Position numbers and translations under genes: made by a program. Source: an uncultured Clostridia bacterium (lineage in GTDB: Bacteria > Bacillota > Clostridia > TANB77 > CAG-508). From it: a stretch of 64,000 bases of DNA. Below the pieces are notes generated by a model. It was not told where the DNA came from. It saw only the letters and a program-made list of their open reading frames with translations, and did not search any database. Within the stretch, counting starts at the first letter, position 1, and every line of letters begins with the position of its first letter. Below, one piece after another: positions 3,748 to 40,906 of the stretch. The stretch lies in contig CANQAH010000001.1 in assembly GCA_947588885.1 (NCBI GenBank), forward strand, positions 6,114 to 70,113, in the 5' to 3' direction.

Positions 3748-5511
3748 ATGAGAGAAAATGAATACAGAACGCATAATTGCAATGAATTAAGACTATCAGA
3801 TGTTGGAAAAGAAATTCGTTTAGCTGGATGGGTACAAAAAATTAGAAATCTTGGAAAAATGACATTTATAGATTTAAGAGATGAATTTGGAATTACACAA
3901 ATTATAATTTCAGATGATGAAAAACTAAAGGACCAAATGGCAGATGTTACTACTGAATGCACTATTTCTGTAAGTGGAAAAGTTGCGGAAAGATCAAATA
4001 AAAATTTGGATATAGCAACAGGTGAAATAGAAATTATTGCTGAAGAAATTCGTGTTTTAGGAAAATGCAAAAATGTACTTCCATTTGAAATAAATCAAAA
4101 GGATCCACAAGAAGTTAGAGAAGATCTTAGATTAGAATATAGATTCCTTGATTTAAGAAATGACAAGATTCATAAAAATATTTTAGACCGTTCTAGAATA
4201 ATTAAAACAATGAGAGATGAAATGGATAGACTTGGATTTACAGAAATTCAAACACCAATCTTAGCAAATTCATCACCTGAAGGAGCAAGAGATTTCTTAG
4301 TACCTAGTAGATTACATCCAGGAGAATTTTATGCACTTCCACAAGCACCACAACAATTTAAACAATTATTGATGGTTTCTGGATTTAATAAATATTATCA
4401 AATTGCACCATGCTTTAGAGATGAAGATCCTAGAGCTGATAGATCACCAGGAGAATTTTATCAACTAGATTTAGAAATGAGTTTTGCAACACAAGAAGAT
4501 GTTTTTGCTGTTTTAGAAGAAGTTATACCAAATGTATTCAAGAAAAATAGTGATTGGAAAATTACTGAAGCACCATTTGTTAGAATTCCATATAAAGAGG
4601 CTATGGAAAAGTATGGAACAGATAAACCAGATTTAAGAAATCCATTATATATAGTTGATGTTACAGAAGTATTTAAAAATACTGAATTTAATGCATTTAA
4701 AGGAAAAACTGTAAAAGCAATAGTAACACATAATATGGAAGAAAAGCCTAGAAAATTTTTCGATCAAATGTCTGAATATGCTGTTTCAGAATTAGATGCA
4801 AAAGGACTAGCTTGGGTTAAAATAGATCAAAATAATGAATTAACAGGTGGAATATCAAAATTCATAACAGAAGAAAATAGAAAAGAACTAGATAAAAAAT
4901 TAGAAATTTCAAAAAATGATGCAGTATTTTTTGTTGCAGATGAATTTGAAAAAGCTCAGAAAATATCTGGTGGAGTAAGAGATGAATTAGGAAGAAGACT
5001 AGAATTAATAGAAAAAGAAATTTACAAATTCTGTTGGATTGTAGATTTCCCAATGTATGAATTATCAGATGAAGGAACAATCGACTTTAATCATAATCCA
5101 TTCTCAATGCCACAAGGTGGAATGGAAGCACTTGAAACAAAAGATCCATTAGATATTTATGCATATCAATATGATTTAGTATGTAATGGATACGAAATTT
5201 GTTCAGGAGCAGTTAGGAACCATGATCAAGAAATAATGATAAAAGCATTTGAAATAGCAGGATATACAGAAGAAGATGTTAAAGGAAGATTTGGAGCTTT
5301 ATATAATGCATTCAGTTATGGTACACCACCACATGCAGGAGCTGCACCTGGAATAGATAGAATTATTATGTTACTTCAAAAAGAAGATAATATTAGAGAA
5401 GTAATAGCATTTCCAAAAAATAAAAAAGCAAGAGACGTTTTGATGAGAGCACCTTCAAAAGTTTCAGAACAACAATTAAAAGATGTTCACATTAAACTAG
5501 ATGTAAAATAA
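3748..5511 (+). CDS. aspS: Aspartate--tRNA ligase, bacterial type, paralog 1 (no T-box leader)
   Basis: 587 aa with class II motifs FRDEDPRADRSPGEFYQLD, QYDLVCNGYEICSGAVRNH and GAAPGIDR. RBS AAGAGGA. Confidence 0.95.
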   Translation: MRENEYRTHNCNELRLSDVGKEIRLAGWVQKIRNLGKMTFIDLRDEFGITQIIISDDEKLKDQMADVTTECTISVSGKVAERSNKNLDIATGEIEIIAEEIRVLGKCKNVLPFEINQKDPQEVREDLRLEYRFLDLRNDKIHKNILDRSRIIKTMRDEMDRLGFTEIQTPILANSSPEGARDFLVPSRLHPGEFYALPQAPQQFKQLLMVSGFNKYYQIAPCFRDEDPRADRSPGEFYQLDLEMSFATQEDVFAVLEEVIPNVFKKNSDWKITEAPFVRIPYKEAMEKYGTDKPDLRNPLYIVDVTEVFKNTEFNAFKGKTVKAIVTHNMEEKPRKFFDQMSEYAVSELDAKGLAWVKIDQNNELTGGISKFITEENRKELDKKLEISKNDAVFFVADEFEKAQKISGGVRDELGRRLELIEKEIYKFCWIVDFPMYELSDEGTIDFNHNPFSMPQGGMEALETKDPLDIYAYQYDLVCNGYEICSGAVRNHDQEIMIKAFEIAGYTEEDVKGRFGALYNAFSYGTPPHAGAAPGIDRIIMLLQKEDNIREVIAFPKNKKARDVLMRAPSKVSEQQLKDVHIKLDVK

Positions 5512-5594: not shown

Positions 5595-6929
5595 ATGAAA
5601 AAAACAAAAATAATATCAATTATTTTTATAACATTAATGATTCTTTTTATAAATTGTGTATCATATGCAAAGTCTGCAAAAGTTACAACAGAAACATTGC
5701 GTATACGAGAGAAGCCAAGCACGGATTCTAAAATAGTGGATATGGCAAATCAAAATGATGATATAGAGGTTATCGGAGAAGAAGGAAGTTGGTACAAAGT
5801 ATCATATAATGGAAAAGAAGGATATGCATCAAAAGAATATATAGATGTAAAAGAAAGTGTAACTTCAAATACTACAGATAACACAAATACACAAGAAAAC
5901 AACATGGGAGATACTGAAAATACAAGTTCAGAGGAAAACACAATAGAACCTGAATCAGAAGAAACGCAAGAACTAATAAAGGATGTTGAAGAAGAATCTA
6001 CTACAAATGAAAAAATTGAAGGTCAATTAGGAAATAAAATTAATTCTAAAACATATGGATTTTTAATACCAAATTTATCTTCAACGAAACTAATAGAAAT
6101 AGAAAAAGATAAGCAAGTAGAAATAATAGAAACAATTTCTAATTGGTCAAAAGTAAAAGTAGAAAATAAAGAAGTATGGATTGCTAATGAATTTTTATAT
6201 GAAGTAATAACAGAAGAATCTACTGAAATACCTGAAGAAACTGAACCAGAAGAAGAACTACCAGCTGAAGATGAAGAAAAAGAAACTACAATAAATCAAG
6301 AAGGATATATATCAGCAAATGCCAGCGTTAATTTAAGAGAAGGGCCAAGCACTAATACGAAAAGTATAGATCAAATTGAAAAGAATACAGCTGTGACAGT
6401 AATATCAGAAATTGATGAATGGTATAAAATATCATACAATGGTAAAGAAGGATATGTATCAAAATCATTAATTACTTTAGGAAAAGCACCACAACCAACT
6501 TCTTCAAGATCTGCTGAAGAATCAAGAAATGACTTAAATGCAATGTCAAAGGGAACATCAATAGTAGAAACAGCAAGTTTATATTTAGGTGGAAAATATA
6601 AATCAGGAGGTTCGTCACCAACAACAGGTTTTGACTGTTCAGGATTTACACAATATATATATTCAATACATGGAATAACAATTCCAAGATCAGCGACGGC
6701 ACAATATAATGGTGGAACAAAAGTAAATAAATCAGATATGCAAATAGGTGATTTAGTATTCTTTTCTGATAATGCAGGAGGAAAATCAATATCACATGTT
6801 GGAATTTATATAGGAAATGGACAATTCATACATGCTGCAAATTCTAAAAGAGGAATTGTAACAAATTCACTAGATACTAATGATAATTATGGATACAATG
6901 AAAAATTCATAGGAGCAGTGAGATATTAA
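5595..6929 (+). CDS. Secreted cell-wall hydrolase: repeated SH3b-type domains, acidic linkers and a C-terminal NlpC/P60 (C40) endopeptidase
   Basis: Signal peptide. WYKVSYNGKEGYxSKEYI is repeated. The C-terminus has FDCSGFTQYIY (catalytic Cys) and ISHVGIYIGNGQFIHA (His). Confidence 0.85.
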   Translation: MKKTKIISIIFITLMILFINCVSYAKSAKVTTETLRIREKPSTDSKIVDMANQNDDIEVIGEEGSWYKVSYNGKEGYASKEYIDVKESVTSNTTDNTNTQENNMGDTENTSSEENTIEPESEETQELIKDVEEESTTNEKIEGQLGNKINSKTYGFLIPNLSSTKLIEIEKDKQVEIIETISNWSKVKVENKEVWIANEFLYEVITEESTEIPEETEPEEELPAEDEEKETTINQEGYISANASVNLREGPSTNTKSIDQIEKNTAVTVISEIDEWYKISYNGKEGYVSKSLITLGKAPQPTSSRSAEESRNDLNAMSKGTSIVETASLYLGGKYKSGGSSPTTGFDCSGFTQYIYSIHGITIPRSATAQYNGGTKVNKSDMQIGDLVFFSDNAGGKSISHVGIYIGNGQFIHAANSKRGIVTNSLDTNDNYGYNEKFIGAVRY

Positions 6930-21443: not shown

Positions 21444-22499
21444 ATGGAGGAAAATACTAAAATTGCTTCAAAACATGAGAGTAGCAATTTATTAACTAAA
21501 ATTGCTCTTGTGTTGATTTTACTTTTAATAGTGTTAAATGTATTGAGATATGCAGCATATTTTGAAAAAGATGTAGATGGAAATGTTCAAATTTCAATTC
21601 AAAACGATACTAATGTTGAATTGGAACATGATGTTTATATAGACGAAAATAATGTTATTTTTCTATCAGAAGATGATATGAAAAATTATTTTGATAAAGA
21701 CTTATACTATGAAAACATTGAAAACAACAAAAGAAAATATATTTCAGTTTTTGAAAACAAGATATTAGAAATTAATGAAGATGAGAATAACATGTTTATT
21801 AATGATGAAAGATATAAAATAAAAGCTGCTGTTATAAATAGAGATGGAATTTATTATTTTCCAATATCTGAGTTAAAAAATGTCTATAATTTAAATATAA
21901 ATTTTTCTAGTGATATGAAAAGAATCAATATTGAAAAACTTTCAGATAAAAAAGTTGTTGCTACGATAAATAAAGAAACAAAAGTCAAATATAAGATGAC
22001 AGATATTTCAAAGAATGTAACTACATTAGAAAAAGATACGCAAGTAGAAATAGTTGGAAAAATGGATAAATCCTGGACTAAAATTAAGACTCCAGACTGT
22101 TATGTTGGATATGTAAAATCATCAAAATTAGAAAATGAAAATGTTGAAAGACAAGAATATAAAGAAAATGATTATAGCAGATTTGATGTAAATAATGCGA
22201 CAATAATAGAAATAAATGGAGAAAAAGATCCAGAAATTAATGAAAAAATTTCAGGGTATGATTCAAGAAAAGCAAAAGTAAAAGAAATTTTGCAAGAAGC
22301 AGCAAATGAAGTAGTTCAATTAAAAGGAAAAAGTATAGGAGTTAAGATAGATATAACTTCAGAAAAACCAGAAGACTATTATAGGTTTTTAAAAGAATTA
22401 AAAGCTTATTTAAATAATATGAATGTTTGTTTACTTGTAGTGGATAGAAATGTTATAGATAAAAATGAATTGACAGAAATTTGTAATATTGTATTGTAG
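21444..22499 (+). CDS. Membrane-anchored hypothetical protein with an SH3b-like segment
   Basis: TM helix near the N-terminus. KSWTKIKTPDCYVGYVKSSKL is SH3b-like. The rest was not recognised. Confidence 0.4.
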   Translation: MEENTKIASKHESSNLLTKIALVLILLLIVLNVLRYAAYFEKDVDGNVQISIQNDTNVELEHDVYIDENNVIFLSEDDMKNYFDKDLYYENIENNKRKYISVFENKILEINEDENNMFINDERYKIKAAVINRDGIYYFPISELKNVYNLNINFSSDMKRINIEKLSDKKVVATINKETKVKYKMTDISKNVTTLEKDTQVEIVGKMDKSWTKIKTPDCYVGYVKSSKLENENVERQEYKENDYSRFDVNNATIIEINGEKDPEINEKISGYDSRKAKVKEILQEAANEVVQLKGKSIGVKIDITSEKPEDYYRFLKELKAYLNNMNVCLLVVDRNVIDKNELTEICNIVL

Positions 22500-22515
22500 A
22501 AGGGATTTTGCAAAA

Positions 22516-23610
22516 ATGAAAAAAGAAAAAGGGTTTTCACTAATAAGATTTATATTGATGATATTTTTACTTATAATTATTTTTGGATTTGTAGGAGGAT
22601 TTGTATGGTATAGTTCTGCTATAAAACCATTACAAACTAATAGTGAAAAAGTTGTAGTAGATATTAAAAGTGGAAGCGGAATATCAGGTATAGCAGATTT
22701 ACTAGAAGCAAATAATGTAATAAAAGATGCAACTGCATTTAAAATATATTGTAAATTGAATGATGCTACATCAATGCAAGCTGGAAAATATGAATTAGAT
22801 AAAAATATGTCTGTAGAGCAGATTGTAACTGAATTAAAAAATGGAAATGTTGTTGATGAAACAGTAAAAATAACTTTTATCGAAGGAAAAAACATGAGAT
22901 GGATAGCTTCTACAATTGCATCAGCTACAGATAATACAGAAGAAGATGTTTTTAATTTATTACAAGACGAAGAATATATTAATTCAGTGATTGAAAAATA
23001 TTGGTTTGTTACAGATGATATAAAAAATAGTGAAATTTATTATCCTTTAGAAGGATATTTGTTTCCAGACACATATATTTTATCTGATAAATCAGAAAGT
23101 GTTGAAACAATTTTTGGAAAAATGCTTGATAGAATGGAAGAGGTTTTAGAACCATTGCAGAGAGATATACAAAATAGTGATTATTCGATTCATGAAATTT
23201 TGTCTTTTGCATCAGTTGTTGAACTTGAGGCTGGAAAAGATAATAGAGCTGAAGTTGCAGGCGTTTTTTATAATAGATTAAATAGAAATATGGGTATGCA
23301 AAGTGATGTAACAACATATTATGCACTTAAACTAGATTTAGATGAAAGAGAATTAACTAGAAGAGAAATTGCAAGTGAAAATCCATATAACACAAGTTGC
23401 TCATCAATGGCTGGAAAATTACCAATTGGGCCTATAGCAATGGTGGATAGAACATCAATTAATGCAGTGTTGCATCCTAAAGAGACAGATGCATTATTCT
23501 TTGTTGCAGATAAAGATGGTAACATATATTTCTCTAGAACAAATGAAGAACATGAACAAATTGTACAAGAGCTTAAAGATAGAGGTTTATGGTACACATA
23601 TGATGAATAA
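22516..23610 (+). CDS. mltG: Endolytic murein transglycosylase MltG (YceG-like)
   Basis: N-terminal TM helix. LEGYLFPDTY, VASIVE-like SVVELEAG and YNTSCSSMAGKLPIGPI motifs. ATG at 22516. Confidence 0.85.
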   Translation: MKKEKGFSLIRFILMIFLLIIIFGFVGGFVWYSSAIKPLQTNSEKVVVDIKSGSGISGIADLLEANNVIKDATAFKIYCKLNDATSMQAGKYELDKNMSVEQIVTELKNGNVVDETVKITFIEGKNMRWIASTIASATDNTEEDVFNLLQDEEYINSVIEKYWFVTDDIKNSEIYYPLEGYLFPDTYILSDKSESVETIFGKMLDRMEEVLEPLQRDIQNSDYSIHEILSFASVVELEAGKDNRAEVAGVFYNRLNRNMGMQSDVTTYYALKLDLDERELTRREIASENPYNTSCSSMAGKLPIGPIAMVDRTSINAVLHPKETDALFFVADKDGNIYFSRTNEEHEQIVQELKDRGLWYTYDE

Positions 23611-23613
23611 AAC

Positions 23614-23642
23614 TTGACAAATATGGAAAAACTGTTTAAAAT
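23614..23642 (+). promoter_or_regulatory. Promoter of the aspS2 T-box leader
   Basis: TTGACA-N17-TAAAAT. Confidence 0.6.
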
Positions 23643-23662
23643 AAATATATTATTGTGAAATA

Positions 23663-23866
23663 TTCGAGCGATGAAAATGCAAAGTAATTGTGACAGAAAA
23701 TCTAGAAGAGAAGAATTACCATAGGCTGAGAGTAATTCAGATTGAAACAATTATGAAACACATTGGAGCTAGTTTTTAAAGTGGGATTTTATCCAATTTG
23801 GGTGGTACCGCGGAAGTAGTTAGTTGAGAGCTTTCGTCCCTTTAGGGCGATGGCTCTTTTGTTTTA
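23663..23866 (+). promoter_or_regulatory. T-box riboswitch leader with apparent AAC (Asn) specifier
   Basis: T-box sequence aatttGGGTGGTACCGCGg at 23795-23813. Terminator gagagc...gctctttt at 23826-23866. Stem I 3-prime side ...atgaAACAcattggagc aligns with ...ggatGGAActttggagc of the Gly T-box at 40.8 kb. Confidence 0.8.
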
Positions 23867-23871
23867 CGTGG

Positions 23872-24285
23872 TTGAAAAAATAATCATCATTCTACGTCGT
23901 TAAATTGCAATCAAAAATCCTCAACGTACTTGTGTACGCCTCCGGTATTTTGATTACAATTTGCCTAGTACAATAATAATTATTTTTTCAACGGCGAAAG
24001 AGTTGAAGAAATGATTTTTTTTCCGACAAGACTAAGCTTGAAAATAATCATCATTCTAGGTTGCTAAATTATAATTAAAATTCTCAACGTACTTGTGTAC
24101 GCTTCCGGTATTTTGATTGTAATTTGCCTAGTATATTAATGATTCTTTTTCCAACTAGTGGGCTTGAAAAAATAATCATCATTCTACGTCGTTAAATTAC
24201 AATCAAAAATCCTCAACGTACTTGTGTACGCTTCCGGTATTTTGATTGCAATTTGCCTAGTATAATAATAATTCTTTTTTCAAGC
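23872..24285 (+). repeat. Family A long-hairpin tandem array (3 units, spacing 166 and 126 bp) lying between the T-box terminator and the aspS2 start
   Basis: Units start with ttgaaaaaataatcatcattcta at 23872, 24038 and 24164. Each has an inner stem aaattgcaatcaaaaat / attttgattgcaattt around the core cctcaacgtacttgtgtacgc(c/t)tccggt, followed by tttgcctagta. Confidence 0.9.
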
Positions 24286-24346
24286 ATGAATTGAGAAGAA
24301 GTAATATTACGTATAAATTATTTTATAACGCAGAAAGGAGAAAAAA

Positions 24347-26101
24347 ATGTATAGAACTTATACTTGTAATGAAATAAGAGAAAAAAATGTTGGTGAGCAT
24401 ATTAAACTTGCTGGATGGGTCCAAACAATAAGAGATTTAGGAGGAGTTCTTTTTGTTGATTTAAGAGATCAATATGGAATTACTCAAGTTGTTGCTTCAG
24501 GAAATGAAGAACTAGTTGATAAAATATCAAGAATTCCTGTTGAATCTACAATTTCTGTTGAAGGAACTGTAAGATTAAGAGATCAAGAAACTGTAAATGA
24601 AAAACTTGATACTGGTTTAGTTGAATTATTTGTCGAAAAAGTTGAAATATTAGGAAAAAGAACAAAACCATTACCTTTTGAAATAGAATCAAGTAGAGAT
24701 GTTAGAGAAGATTTAAGATTGCAATATAGATTTCTAGATTTAAGAAATGAGAAACTAAAAAATAATTTAATCTTAAGATCAAAAGTTATCCAATTTATGA
24801 GAGAACAAATGGTAAAAAAAGACTTTTTAGAAGTTCAAACACCTATACTTACAAGTTCATCTCCAGAGGGAGCTAGAGATTATTTAGTGCCAAGTAGAAT
24901 TTATCCAGGAAAATTTTATGCACTTCCACAAGCACCACAACAATTTAAACAATTGCTAATGGTTTCTGGAATAGATAAATATTTCCAAATAGCACCTTGC
25001 TTTAGAGATGAAGATGCAAGAGCTGATAGAACACCTGGAGAATTTTATCAGTTAGATATGGAAATGTCTTTTGCAACACAAGATGATGTTTTATCAGTTA
25101 TGGAAGAAGTAATTTATAATGTATTCAAAAAATTTTCAAATAAAAAAATTGCAAAATATCCATTTCCTAGGATACCATATAAAGAATCAATGCTTAAATA
25201 CGGCACAGATAAACCAGATTTAAGAAATCCATTAGTTATTTGTGATGTTACTGATATATTTGAAAAAGTTGATTTAAAAGTATTTAATGGAAAGCAAGTA
25301 AGAATTATATCTGTTCCAAATGGAGCAAGTGCATCAAGAACCTTATTTGAAGGAATGACAGATTTTGCAATTAATGAATGTAAAGCAAAGGGATTAGCTT
25401 GGCTTAAAGTAAATGAAGATAGAACGCTGCAAGGACCAATAGCAAAATTTATTGATGATGAGTCTAGAGAGGCAATGTTAAAAAAGGCAGGAACAAATGC
25501 AGGTGATGCAATATTTTTTGTTGCAGAACATGAACCAATAGCTTCTAAACTTGCAGGACAGATAAGAGAAGAACTTGGAAAAAGAATGGAATTAATTGAT
25601 GATTCAACTTATCAATTTTGCTGGATAGTTGATTTTCCAATGTTTGAAAGAGCAGATAATGGAAAAATAGAATTTTCACATAATCCATTTTCAATGCCAC
25701 AAGGTGGAATGGAAGCTTTAGAAAATGAAGAACCTTTAGACATTTTAGCATATCAATATGATATTGTTGGAAATGGTATAGAACTTGCATCAGGTGCAGT
25801 AAGGAACCATTCACCAGAGATAATGATTAAAGCATTTGAAATTGCTGGATATCAAGAAGATGAAATATATAAAAAGTTTTCAGCACTTTATAATGCATTC
25901 CATTATGGTGCACCACCACATGCTGGTATTGCACCAGGTATTGATAGAATTATAATGCTTCTTGCAGAGGAAGAAACAATTAGAGAAGTTCAAGCATTCC
26001 CAATGAATGCAAAGGCTCAAGATGTGTTAATGGGAGCACCATCAAATGTTTCTCAAAAGCAGTTAGATGAAATTCATATAAAAATAGATGAGAAAAAATA
26101 A
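24347..26101 (+). CDS. aspS: Aspartate--tRNA ligase, paralog 2 (T-box controlled; candidate non-discriminating enzyme)
   Basis: 584 aa, collinear with paralog 1 and by eye roughly 60% identical to it. Motifs FRDEDARADRTPGEFYQLD and GIAPGIDR. RBS AAGGAG. Confidence 0.93.
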   Translation: MYRTYTCNEIREKNVGEHIKLAGWVQTIRDLGGVLFVDLRDQYGITQVVASGNEELVDKISRIPVESTISVEGTVRLRDQETVNEKLDTGLVELFVEKVEILGKRTKPLPFEIESSRDVREDLRLQYRFLDLRNEKLKNNLILRSKVIQFMREQMVKKDFLEVQTPILTSSSPEGARDYLVPSRIYPGKFYALPQAPQQFKQLLMVSGIDKYFQIAPCFRDEDARADRTPGEFYQLDMEMSFATQDDVLSVMEEVIYNVFKKFSNKKIAKYPFPRIPYKESMLKYGTDKPDLRNPLVICDVTDIFEKVDLKVFNGKQVRIISVPNGASASRTLFEGMTDFAINECKAKGLAWLKVNEDRTLQGPIAKFIDDESREAMLKKAGTNAGDAIFFVAEHEPIASKLAGQIREELGKRMELIDDSTYQFCWIVDFPMFERADNGKIEFSHNPFSMPQGGMEALENEEPLDILAYQYDIVGNGIELASGAVRNHSPEIMIKAFEIAGYQEDEIYKKFSALYNAFHYGAPPHAGIAPGIDRIIMLLAEEETIREVQAFPMNAKAQDVLMGAPSNVSQKQLDEIHIKIDEKK

Positions 26102-26146
26102 GAATAATTGAAAATCATTTTCATATTTTTAATGAAGGTGATTTTG

Positions 26147-27094
26147 ATGAATGAAAATATATTATATGTTGATTATTTAGAATCATACAAAGAAGTTATA
26201 AAAGTAAAATTTCCAAACATATTAAAAAAGATTATATACAAAATATTTAATTTTTTTGGAGTTGCAAAAATAGATAATAATTACTTAGTTTTGATGAGTA
26301 CATGTGAAGATATAAATGATAAAATGCTAGCTAAAGTCTGTAAAACAGCACAACAACTAAAATTGAAGAATATAGCTTTGGCGGATAAGCTAAAAAATAA
26401 TTCTCTTATACAAGAAAAATTATTAAAATGTGATTTTATATTTTTAGATGGCACAAAAATATATAAATTTTTAACATATGAAATAGTTAATAAAATTGCA
26501 TATATTCAAAATTTGAGAATGCAGAGTATGGAAATTACTTTTTTGACTAATAATAATTCAGATGTAAATTTGGAGAATATAAAATTACTAGCTCAAAGAT
26601 GTAAAATTATTAATATTTTAACAGAAAAAGTGGAATTGTTTTCAAGTTTAGAAAAGCAGTTATATGAAGAGAATGGAATTATAATTAATGTTTCAAGTAA
26701 TAAAAGAAAAACTTGTATGTATTCTGATATTATTTTAAATGTCGATTTTGATAATAAGATTTTAGAAAAATGTAAATTGAGAGAAAAAACAATTATAGTT
26801 CAATTTACTAAATCAAAATTTGAAAACAAGACAGGAGTTACTATTACATCGTATAAATTGAATATTCCTGAAAAATATTGTAAAAATAAAGAATTAGTAA
26901 AACACTTTTCAAATGAAATAATTTATGAAAGTTATTTTTATTATAAATTATCTTTTAAAAATGTTAGAAAAATTTTAAAAAAGGATAATATTAGTGTTAA
27001 GCATTTTATAGGAAATAATGGAAAAATTAGTTTTAAAGAAATAAAAGAAAATCATTTTAAAAAGAGTGCAAAAATACTTGACAAAATTAAATAA
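26147..27094 (+). CDS. Hypothetical protein (K/N/I-rich, no recognised domain)
   Basis: ATG at 26147 preceded by GAAGGTG. Long uninterrupted ORF in an AT-rich background. Confidence 0.4.
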   Translation: MNENILYVDYLESYKEVIKVKFPNILKKIIYKIFNFFGVAKIDNNYLVLMSTCEDINDKMLAKVCKTAQQLKLKNIALADKLKNNSLIQEKLLKCDFIFLDGTKIYKFLTYEIVNKIAYIQNLRMQSMEITFLTNNNSDVNLENIKLLAQRCKIINILTEKVELFSSLEKQLYEENGIIINVSSNKRKTCMYSDIILNVDFDNKILEKCKLREKTIIVQFTKSKFENKTGVTITSYKLNIPEKYCKNKELVKHFSNEIIYESYFYYKLSFKNVRKILKKDNISVKHFIGNNGKISFKEIKENHFKKSAKILDKIK

Positions 27095-30852: not shown

Positions 30853-31235
30853 ATAACTTCAAAGTAATCCACCAGCTATGCTGGGGAGTTGGAAAACTTA
30901 TAGTTTTGCACAAGATAAAAAATCCCACTCAAACATGATATAATATTTTAAGTTTGACGGCTTAAATATAAAATCATGAAAGGAGTGGTACGTATGAAAA
31001 GCCCATACATAAATATTTTAGCACACACAACATGGGAATGCAAGCATCATATAGTATTTGCACCAAAATTTAGAAGAAAAGAAATATATAGAACAATAAA
31101 AGTAGTAAGAGAAAAAAACGCAAGCGAAATAGTTGTAAGCTGTCAAACTGGGACGCTTAAGTGTCAGCAGTATCAAGGCCGTATAGAACAATATGAAAAT
31201 CTTCTACTTACTGGGATAATTATAGAATAGATAAG
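30853..31235 (+). mobile_element. IS200/IS605-family remnant (internally deleted)
   Basis: Subterminal hairpin ccaccagc-tat-gctgggg at ~30868-30886, plus a truncated tnpA reading frame. Confidence 0.55.
30994..31230 (+). pseudogene. tnpA: Truncated IS200-type Y1 transposase (tnpA). Only the first ~37 residues are recognisable.
   Basis: MKSPYINILAHTTWECKHHIVFAPKFRRKEIY matches the IS200 TnpA N-terminus (LAHTKWNCKYHIVFAPKYRR). The HUH motif and catalytic Tyr regions are absent, and the remaining frame is unrelated. Confidence 0.65.
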
Positions 31236-40705: not shown

Positions 40706-40721
40706 AGTTACATATTTTATA

Positions 40722-40906
40722 TTGCGTTGATAAAGAGTGAATATATTTTACTTATCTACAGAGAGCTAGAGACGGTGGAAACTAGTGTTAAGAAATATAG
40801 GATGGAACTTTGGAGCAAATTTTTAATTAAGGTGGATTTTAAATCAATTAGGGTGGAACCGCGGAAGATAGAGCTTTCGTCCCTTGTGGGATGGAAGCTC
40901 TTTTTG
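40722..40906 (+). promoter_or_regulatory. T-box riboswitch leader, GGA (Gly) specifier
   Basis: Stem I starts ttgcgttgataaagagtg. Specifier GGA at 40804-40806 is followed by A-ctttggagcaa. T-box attaGGGTGGAACCGCGg (UGGA, fits a U73 discriminator). Terminator agagctttc...gaagctcttttt. Confidence 0.85.

Follow-up and report, generated by a model that had tools for sequence, protein, structure and literature searches.

A T-box with a predicted asparagine specifier precedes a second aspS gene of an uncultured gut Clostridia bacterium and probably serves an aspartyl-tRNA synthetase of the non-discriminating type

The closest described system is that of Clostridium acetobutylicum, in which a T-box reading tRNA-Asn (the 'NT-box') stands on an aspS2-gatCAB transamidation operon (Saad 2012, J Biol Chem, and Saad 2013, PNAS, as cited in PMC4206432, PMC4052509, and PMC4574755). 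One of the three aspS genes of that organism is T-box regulated (PMC2494555), direct and indirect routes to Asn-tRNA are both encoded, and its asnB is split (PMC4206432). Stem II is an optional T-box element and is absent from glycyl T-boxes (PMC7583486), while the U1-A72 pair of tRNA-Asn is the identity element that makes Asp-tRNA-Asn a substrate of GatCAB (PMC1635274). Here, we describe the T-box leader of aspS2, one of two genes for aspartyl-tRNA synthetase (AspRS) on a 64,000-nt stretch of DNA (hereafter the window; positions 6,114 to 70,113 of contig CANQAH010000001.1, assembly GCA_947588885.1) from an uncultured Clostridia bacterium (TANB77; CAG-508). An AAC specifier together with a non-discriminating AspRS2 that feeds transamidation is the best explanation of this locus, and we consider the two, taken together, quite probable. 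Both had been proposed in a first-pass annotation made from the letters of the window, and the C. acetobutylicum precedent on which it drew is real as far as the three citing papers report it.

Between mltG (22489-23610) and aspS2 (24347-26101) lies a complete T-box transcription attenuator (23662-23866), whose parts include a promoter, Stem I, a T-box bulge, and a terminator (+ strand, as are the other elements of the leader and both aspS genes). The T-box covariance model (CM) RF00230 matches 23662-23844 over its full length (model positions 1-219) with 66.7 bits, at E = 6e-14 in a 1.4-kb search and 2.8e-12 in the whole window. Directly 3' of the mltG stop (23610) lies a sigma-70-like promoter, TTGACA-17-TAAAAT (23614-23642), predicted from its consensus match alone (11/12). 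The leader itself (23662-23866; RF00230 match and terminator call) is composed of Stem I, a short linker, Stem III, and the antiterminator/terminator. Stem I (23668-23769; CM alignment and pair counts on 21 leaders) comprises basal GC pairs, a GAUGA kink-turn at 23670-23674, a closing helix in which AAUG 23676-23679 pairs with CAUU 23761-23764, an AGAGA bulge at about 23704-23712, and the distal loop GGCUGAGAG at 23724-23732. Stem II and the Stem IIA/B pseudoknot are absent; their place is taken by a short linker (23770-23782) that runs into an AAAGUG purine motif before Stem III, the 27 and 13 positions of these segments in the model being reduced to 2 + 2 nt, which gives the leader the short architecture of the glycyl T-boxes. 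Stem III (GGGAU UUU AUCC, 23783-23794) was placed by the CM alignment, as was the T-box core GGGUGGUACCGCG (23800-23812) with its bulge UGGU at 23803-23806; the motif count agrees with the latter, the core GGGTGGNACCGCG being found at two places of the window, 23800 and 40851, and 0 occurrences being expected by chance. Fold and terminator scan both find an intrinsic terminator at 23826-23866, made of a 13-bp hairpin (23826-23858) and the U-tract UUUUGUUUU. The 91 nt from 23790 to 23880, which contain this hairpin, fold at -30.1 kcal/mol (z -3.65), and there is overlap between the terminator's 5' arm and the antiterminator's 3' strand; the two structures are mutually exclusive. All obligatory T-box parts are present, and from its sequence the element is predicted to be a T-box transcription attenuator with an Asn specifier upstream of aspS2.

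The Rfam 15 gathering score for RF00230 is 93, and the aspS2 leader, at 66.7 bits, fails this cut-off because of the missing Stem II segments. A default Rfam scan of the window at the gathering threshold accordingly listed no hit at all, a threshold effect, as the E-value mode recovers both T-boxes, the other one being the glyQS T-box at 40718-40887 (+ strand; GGA specifier, UGGA bulge), which with 85.1 bits is also below the gathering score. The same score misses both T-boxes of the window and four of the seven in the genome (66.7-92.8 bits; contigs C1, C15, and C39), all of these with E < 1e-13.

The specifier was read by a simple rule, namely three nucleotides followed by a purine, a 4-bp helix, and then GGAG. 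The segment 23745-23775, aaacaattatgAAACAcattggagc, resolves into AAC (23757-23759), A (23760), CAUU (23761-23764), and GGAGC (23765-23769), and the CM sets AAC in its consensus positions 91-93 and A23760 in position 94. The glyQS leader served as an internal control, with GGA-A in the same CM positions 91-94, which bears out the earlier alignment of the two leaders at the 3' side of Stem I; the codon obtained for aspS2 is AAC, complementary to the anticodon GUU of tRNA-Asn, and not GAC or GAU. Applied to the other six T-boxes of the genome (seven in total), the rule yields AUC, GUA, UCU, UUC, GGA, and ACU, and set against the downstream genes it pairs UUC with a pheS-like, GGA with a glycyl-tRNA synthetase-like, and ACU with a thrS-like gene, and AAC with aspS2.

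To test the specifier by comparison, orthologs of AspRS2 were collected from publicly available genomes. Those of close identity (63-86%) all belong to metagenome-assembled genomes (MAGs) of uncultured gut Clostridia, from samples of deer, rabbit, mouse, chicken, and human. A T-box was found in the upstream sequence of 30 of the 36 related aspS2 loci examined, and AAC plus purine stands directly before the closing helix in 30/30 of these leaders, the purine (23760; column 106 of the leader alignment) being A, or G in locus L033. The 2-4 bases before AAC vary among the related leaders (UGA, GAGG, GAAU, AACU, GCAA, CGC, UGC); therefore, GAA, AAA, and ACA are not conserved triplets, while AAC is. 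The helices that flank the kink-turn (closing helix and basal GC pairs) are 99.2% paired in 21 related leaders, and sliding the 3' strand by 1-3 columns reduces pairing to 18-54%. Three of the six helix pairs show compensatory changes in these leaders, four sequences having A-U in place of G-C and one having C-G in place of U-A. The pairing next to the kink-turn that the first-pass annotation had noted is thereby borne out, and covariation fixes the register of the closing helix. A regular-expression parse had returned GAA-A-CATATT for loci L050 and L064; this was discarded, since AAC-A-TATT follows from the alignment together with a compensatory change of G-C to A-U. The Stem II-less layout is common to most leaders of the relatives (L017-L050), with an insert of 20-45 nt at that place in L020, L021, L045, and L047.

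The loop GAAACA of the window leader holds GAA, AAA, and AAC, which raises the question of a T-box with two codons, in the manner of the NT-box of C. acetobutylicum, reading tRNA-Asn by AAC and, in addition, tRNA-Glu by GAA two bases upstream or tRNA-Lys by AAA. For the leader of C. acetobutylicum, such dual reading has been documented (PMC4052509), and an AAA T-box of Bacillus cereus responds in part to tRNA-Asn (PMC4574755). Neither GAA nor AAA is conserved in the relatives, however, where the corresponding bases read GGAAC, UAAC, GCAAC, or CUAAC and AAC alone is invariant; moreover, GAA is offset by 2 nt rather than 1, and A-C-A would follow it before the helix. The bulge also speaks against tRNA-Lys, as UGGU and UGGC fit G73 and not A73, the base that tRNA-Lys usually has. 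The two-codon reading was rejected for want of a conserved second codon, and we regard it as very improbable.

The bulge was compared in 31 leaders, with the window, L018, and L043 included; 14 of them have UGGU and 17 have UGGC. Either form pairs with G73, the base that the tRNA-Asn of the genome carries, and the bulge cannot separate tRNA-Asp from tRNA-Asn, as the first-pass annotation had remarked. Taken with the conserved AAC, the leader points to tRNA-Asn as the tRNA that the T-box of the window is predicted to read.

The two aspS genes differ in their control. AspRS2 (584 aa, 24347-26101) is a bacterial-type enzyme with a GAD domain (NF001750, 794.9 bits; Pfam tRNA-synt_2, GAD, and OB fold), translated behind a Shine-Dalgarno AGGAG read directly from the sequence at 24336-24340, 6 nt 5' of the ATG. 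Its paralog AspRS1 (587 aa, aspS1 at 3748-5511) is 60% identical, likewise bacterial-type with GAD, and has no T-box: none was found near aspS1 in the window by Rfam, nor at its orthologs (22 loci searched by motif, 14 by Rfam), in agreement with the earlier remark that only aspS2 lies behind one. In a tree of 99 AspRS sequences, AspRS2 (34 rows, SH-aLRT 99) and AspRS1 (21 rows, SH-aLRT 100) form separate clades, and most of the related genomes have one gene of either type. AspRS1, without a T-box, would be the housekeeping enzyme for tRNA-Asp. The anticodon-binding L1 loop reads ER[ST]xK--N in AspRS1 versus R[LK]Rd.eT[IV]N in AspRS2, where it is two residues longer with a conserved ETxN. Loop length was tried as a marker of discrimination and set aside because it does not track this property, the discriminating Thermus enzyme having a short loop and the discriminating E. 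coli AspRS a long one.

The genome of the window is a 1.75-Mb MAG with 27% GC, 95% completeness, and 5.8% contamination. The genes that the first-pass annotation had proposed to look for are in part there: gatB is present, adjoined by gatA and a gatC-like open reading frame (ORF), as are asnS and an asnB-type gene, while asnA was not found in the genome. The genome also has no glnS, which means that GatCAB is needed for Gln-tRNA anyway. The contrary case that had been named, a canonical asnS without gatCAB, does not apply, as gatCAB is present alongside asnS. The genome thus encodes both the direct and the indirect route to Asn-tRNA, and its tRNA-Asn(GUU) has the U1-A72 pair in addition to G73; no tRNA-Asp gene was found among the 29 tRNAs of the MAG. 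The two asnS copies (C76:1136-2512 and C39:8044-9420) are full-length and lie on contigs of typical/equal GC, and neither is associated with a T-box. A single asnS is present in the nearest relatives, and the two found here are either true paralogs or come from a second related strain that was binned together (contamination 5.8%). A conserved ORF of 190-199 aa is located between the gatC-like ORF and gatA (C3:38736-39335), and occurs also in L034 and L043.

The gene content of the relatives says more about what AspRS2 does. In five loci (L033, L035, L042, L043, and L045), aspS2 is directly followed by gatC-gatA-gatB, and in L034, gatCA is divergent to aspS2. In 35 related genomes, gatB was detected in all 35, lysS in 33, and asnS in 23; thus, asnS is absent from 12/35 versus 2/35 for lysS and 0/35 for gatB (binomial p about 1e-10 at the control detection rate, a value that overstates the evidence, as the related genomes are phylogenetically non-independent). 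Six of the 12 asnS-less genomes (G008-G012 and G031) have an aspS2-type gene as their only AspRS, and the enzyme there must therefore charge tRNA-Asn. G008-G012 keep the AAC T-box; in G031, the T-box is absent and the aspS2-type gene has two in-frame stops. In a more distant relative (G033, C2:211091-214206), asnS lies 48 nt 3' of aspS on the same strand. This pathway context in the relatives is the strongest support for the transamidation interpretation, and the logic that the first-pass annotation had built on a non-discriminating AspRS2 is favored by genome context and comparative genomics. By orthology (69-71% identity, same clade) and by this comparison, the AspRS2 of the window is probably non-discriminating.

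The asnB gene carries one to three frameshifts at differing sites (about residues 55, 97, 188, 264, and 350) in 10 of the 12 asnS-less genomes (loci L130-L139, in G003, G008-G012, G025, G026, G030, and G031), which looks like repeated decay of asnB after loss of AsnRS. An intact asnB is found in 15/23 asnS-positive versus 1/12 asnS-negative genomes (Fisher p 0.0016). A bolder view would make AspRS2, where both paralogs are kept, a dedicated tRNA-Asn aspartylating enzyme (comparable to the tRNA-Gln-specific GluRS2 of Helicobacter pylori), with the longer L1 loop (R-x-R-D-x-E-T-x-N) reading U36 and induction by a minimal, Stem II-less T-box, AspRS1 being strictly specific for tRNA-Asp and the clade having repeatedly lost AsnRS and then let asnB decay. 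This we advance tentatively, as a rather unlikely proposal; if true, asparagine in cells without AsnRS and asnB would be present only as Asn-tRNA.

Several observations weigh against the combination of an AAC specifier with a non-discriminating AspRS2. First, the specifier loop of the aspS2 leader lacks 2 nt on its 3' side compared with the CM, with the consequence that the CM needs a 2-nt deletion, the sole weak point of the single-sequence reading, and gap placement varies among the relatives; in L023, L034, L044, and L048, which have the full 8-nt loop, and in L033, the CM sets AAC in the codon columns with no loop deletion. For L024, the CM alignment has CAU in these columns as long as a 3-bp extension of the closing helix is left out, and this CAU reading was rejected, since a 7-bp closing helix (UAAAAUA with UAUUUUA) leaves AAC-A at the loop end. 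Second, gatCAB is a single set on a contig other than that of aspS2, outside the aspS2 operon and without a T-box. Third, the genome retains asnS, in two copies that are 77% identical, as well as one intact asnB-type gene, by which the indirect route is not required; since both are kept, aspS2 is probably an inducible second route and not the sole one. Fourth, about 480 nt with three stable hairpins separate the terminator from the start codon and could alter or loosen the coupling. Fifth, all genomes are MAGs, and their gene-absence counts share the phylogenetic non-independence mentioned above. Finally, the His of the RRRDHGG motif of non-discriminating mycobacterial enzymes is absent, the AspRS2 clade having Leu, Met, or Phe and AspRS1 Leu at this place, and AspRS2 is in this respect like the Thermus enzyme, a discriminating one (RRRDLGG). 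The His signature is not found universally, which makes its absence weak evidence either way, and since His is absent from both clades, the protein sequence alone does not settle discrimination. Inspection of the anticodon-binding region, proposed in the first-pass annotation, did not yield a reading of discrimination: the paralogs do differ in L1, and the published non-discriminating signature is missing.

The missing His and the AsnRS and AsnB of the own genome are what an alternative would build on, in which the T-box reads tRNA-Asn and AspRS2 is an ordinary discriminating enzyme, the Asn specifier either linking additional Asp-tRNA, or the handling of aspartate, to asparagine status or being an evolutionary leftover. 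It is difficult to reconcile with those relatives (G008-G012 and G031) that have only the aspS2-type gene and that lack asnS but not lysS or gatB, or with the aspS2-gatCAB operons of the five loci named above. A leftover would also be at odds with the strict conservation of AAC over the AspRS2 clade, down to 63% protein identity. We therefore judge a discriminating AspRS2 unlikely and retain the non-discriminating one.

The insert between terminator and ribosome-binding site (23866-24290, + strand) consists of three hairpin repeats of ~125 nt (D1 copies at 23872-23991, 24035-24154, and 24164-24283), one unit of which folds at -40.6 kcal/mol (z -7.9). The T-box core is thereby 547 nt from the start codon, compared with about 100 nt in the closest relatives (L017 and L019), from which the insert is absent. 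Weaker copies occur elsewhere in the genome (twice on C10, and on C13, C98, and C8) and at 382-458 of the window. An insert specific to this genome and made of very stable hairpins might have uncoupled the T-box from aspS2, by a promoter of its own or by blocking read-through, and weak promoter-like matches (9/12) are indeed present at 23950, 24148, 24242, and 24291. Such hits are, however, only about twice as frequent as in shuffled sequence (10 found vs 4.6 expected, in DNA of 27% GC), the terminator scan found no + strand terminator-like site in the repeats, and all T-box elements are intact, the terminator included. Uncoupling in this genome is thus improbable in our view, and given the lack of a + strand terminator and the merely weak promoter matches, we think that the T-box is still coupled to aspS2.

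From the general T-box mechanism, regulation would proceed as follows. When Asn-tRNA-Asn falls, uncharged tRNA-Asn (GUU, G73) would pair with AAC and with UGGU, the latter (23803-23806) binding the tRNA 3' end GCCA with a G-U wobble at G73. This pairing would stabilize the antiterminator and let RNA polymerase read into aspS2, while charged Asn-tRNA-Asn would be unable to do so and transcription would stop at 23858-23866. As the comparative genomics suggests, AspRS2 would then put Asp on tRNA-Asn and a constitutive GatCAB would amidate the resulting Asp-tRNA-Asn, with AspRS1 supplying Asp-tRNA-Asp. The tRNA-dependent route may in this way be an inducible supplement to AsnRS/AsnB, switched on when the charging of tRNA-Asn drops.

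Downstream of aspS2, an ORF (26108-27094, + strand) is followed by greA. It starts 7 nt past the aspS2 stop, codes for a Lys/Asn-rich protein of 328 aa with no known function and no Pfam or NCBIfam match, and has homologs (27-42% identical) in the same position in L017-L019, L022, L023, L029, and L051, with greA next in every one of these but L029. It may be co-transcribed with aspS2 behind the Asn T-box. Elsewhere in the window, a sub-threshold Rfam match to STnc490 (30867-30986, 41.1 bits, E 1e-4) may mark an IS200-like element by its structured 5' end.

These results assign putative functions to both aspS paralogs in a large group of gut Clostridia, uncultured and with small genomes of low GC, for which they predict that Asn-tRNA can be made without free asparagine, in some lineages by that route only. 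They also illustrate how an annotation can be corrected from a T-box specifier where it would otherwise read "aspartate--tRNA ligase" twice, and they carry a practical warning, since Stem II-less T-boxes such as both of those in the window are missed at the Rfam 15 gathering score.

In comparison with known systems, the locus shares with C. acetobutylicum a tRNA-Asn T-box before an extra bacterial-type aspS, control of a single aspS copy by a T-box (PMC2494555), and the additional presence of AsnRS, AsnB, and GatCAB; two further likenesses, the aspS-gatCAB operon (in L033, L035, L042, L043, and L045) and a split or frameshifted asnB (PMC4206432), are found in its relatives. It differs in that aspS2 of the window is not followed by gatCAB, which is unlinked and has no T-box, in the lack of a conserved overlapping GAA codon (GAA being 2 nt upstream here), in the absence of Stem II from the leader, and in the three hairpin repeats of the 5' untranslated region. 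The order of Stem I, linker, Stem III, and antiterminator is that of glyQS-type T-boxes, with Stem I and Stem III only about 13 nt apart, as they are in the window's glyQS leader, whereas the specifier is AAC and not GGN, the bulge is UGGU/UGGC (G73) and not UGGA (U73), and the gene is aspS. As in Thermus thermophilus, Deinococcus radiodurans, and Bdellovibrio, AsnRS coexists with a tRNA-dependent route and tRNA-Asn has U1-A72 (PMC4206432); unlike in Thermus and Deinococcus, where AspRS2 is of archaeal type without GAD (PMC4206432), both paralogs are here of bacterial type with GAD, and in contrast to all three, the second AspRS is under T-box control. An Asn T-box on an extra aspS is therefore of a kind already known from C. 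acetobutylicum, and what is known of T-boxes and of transamidation is unchanged by it.

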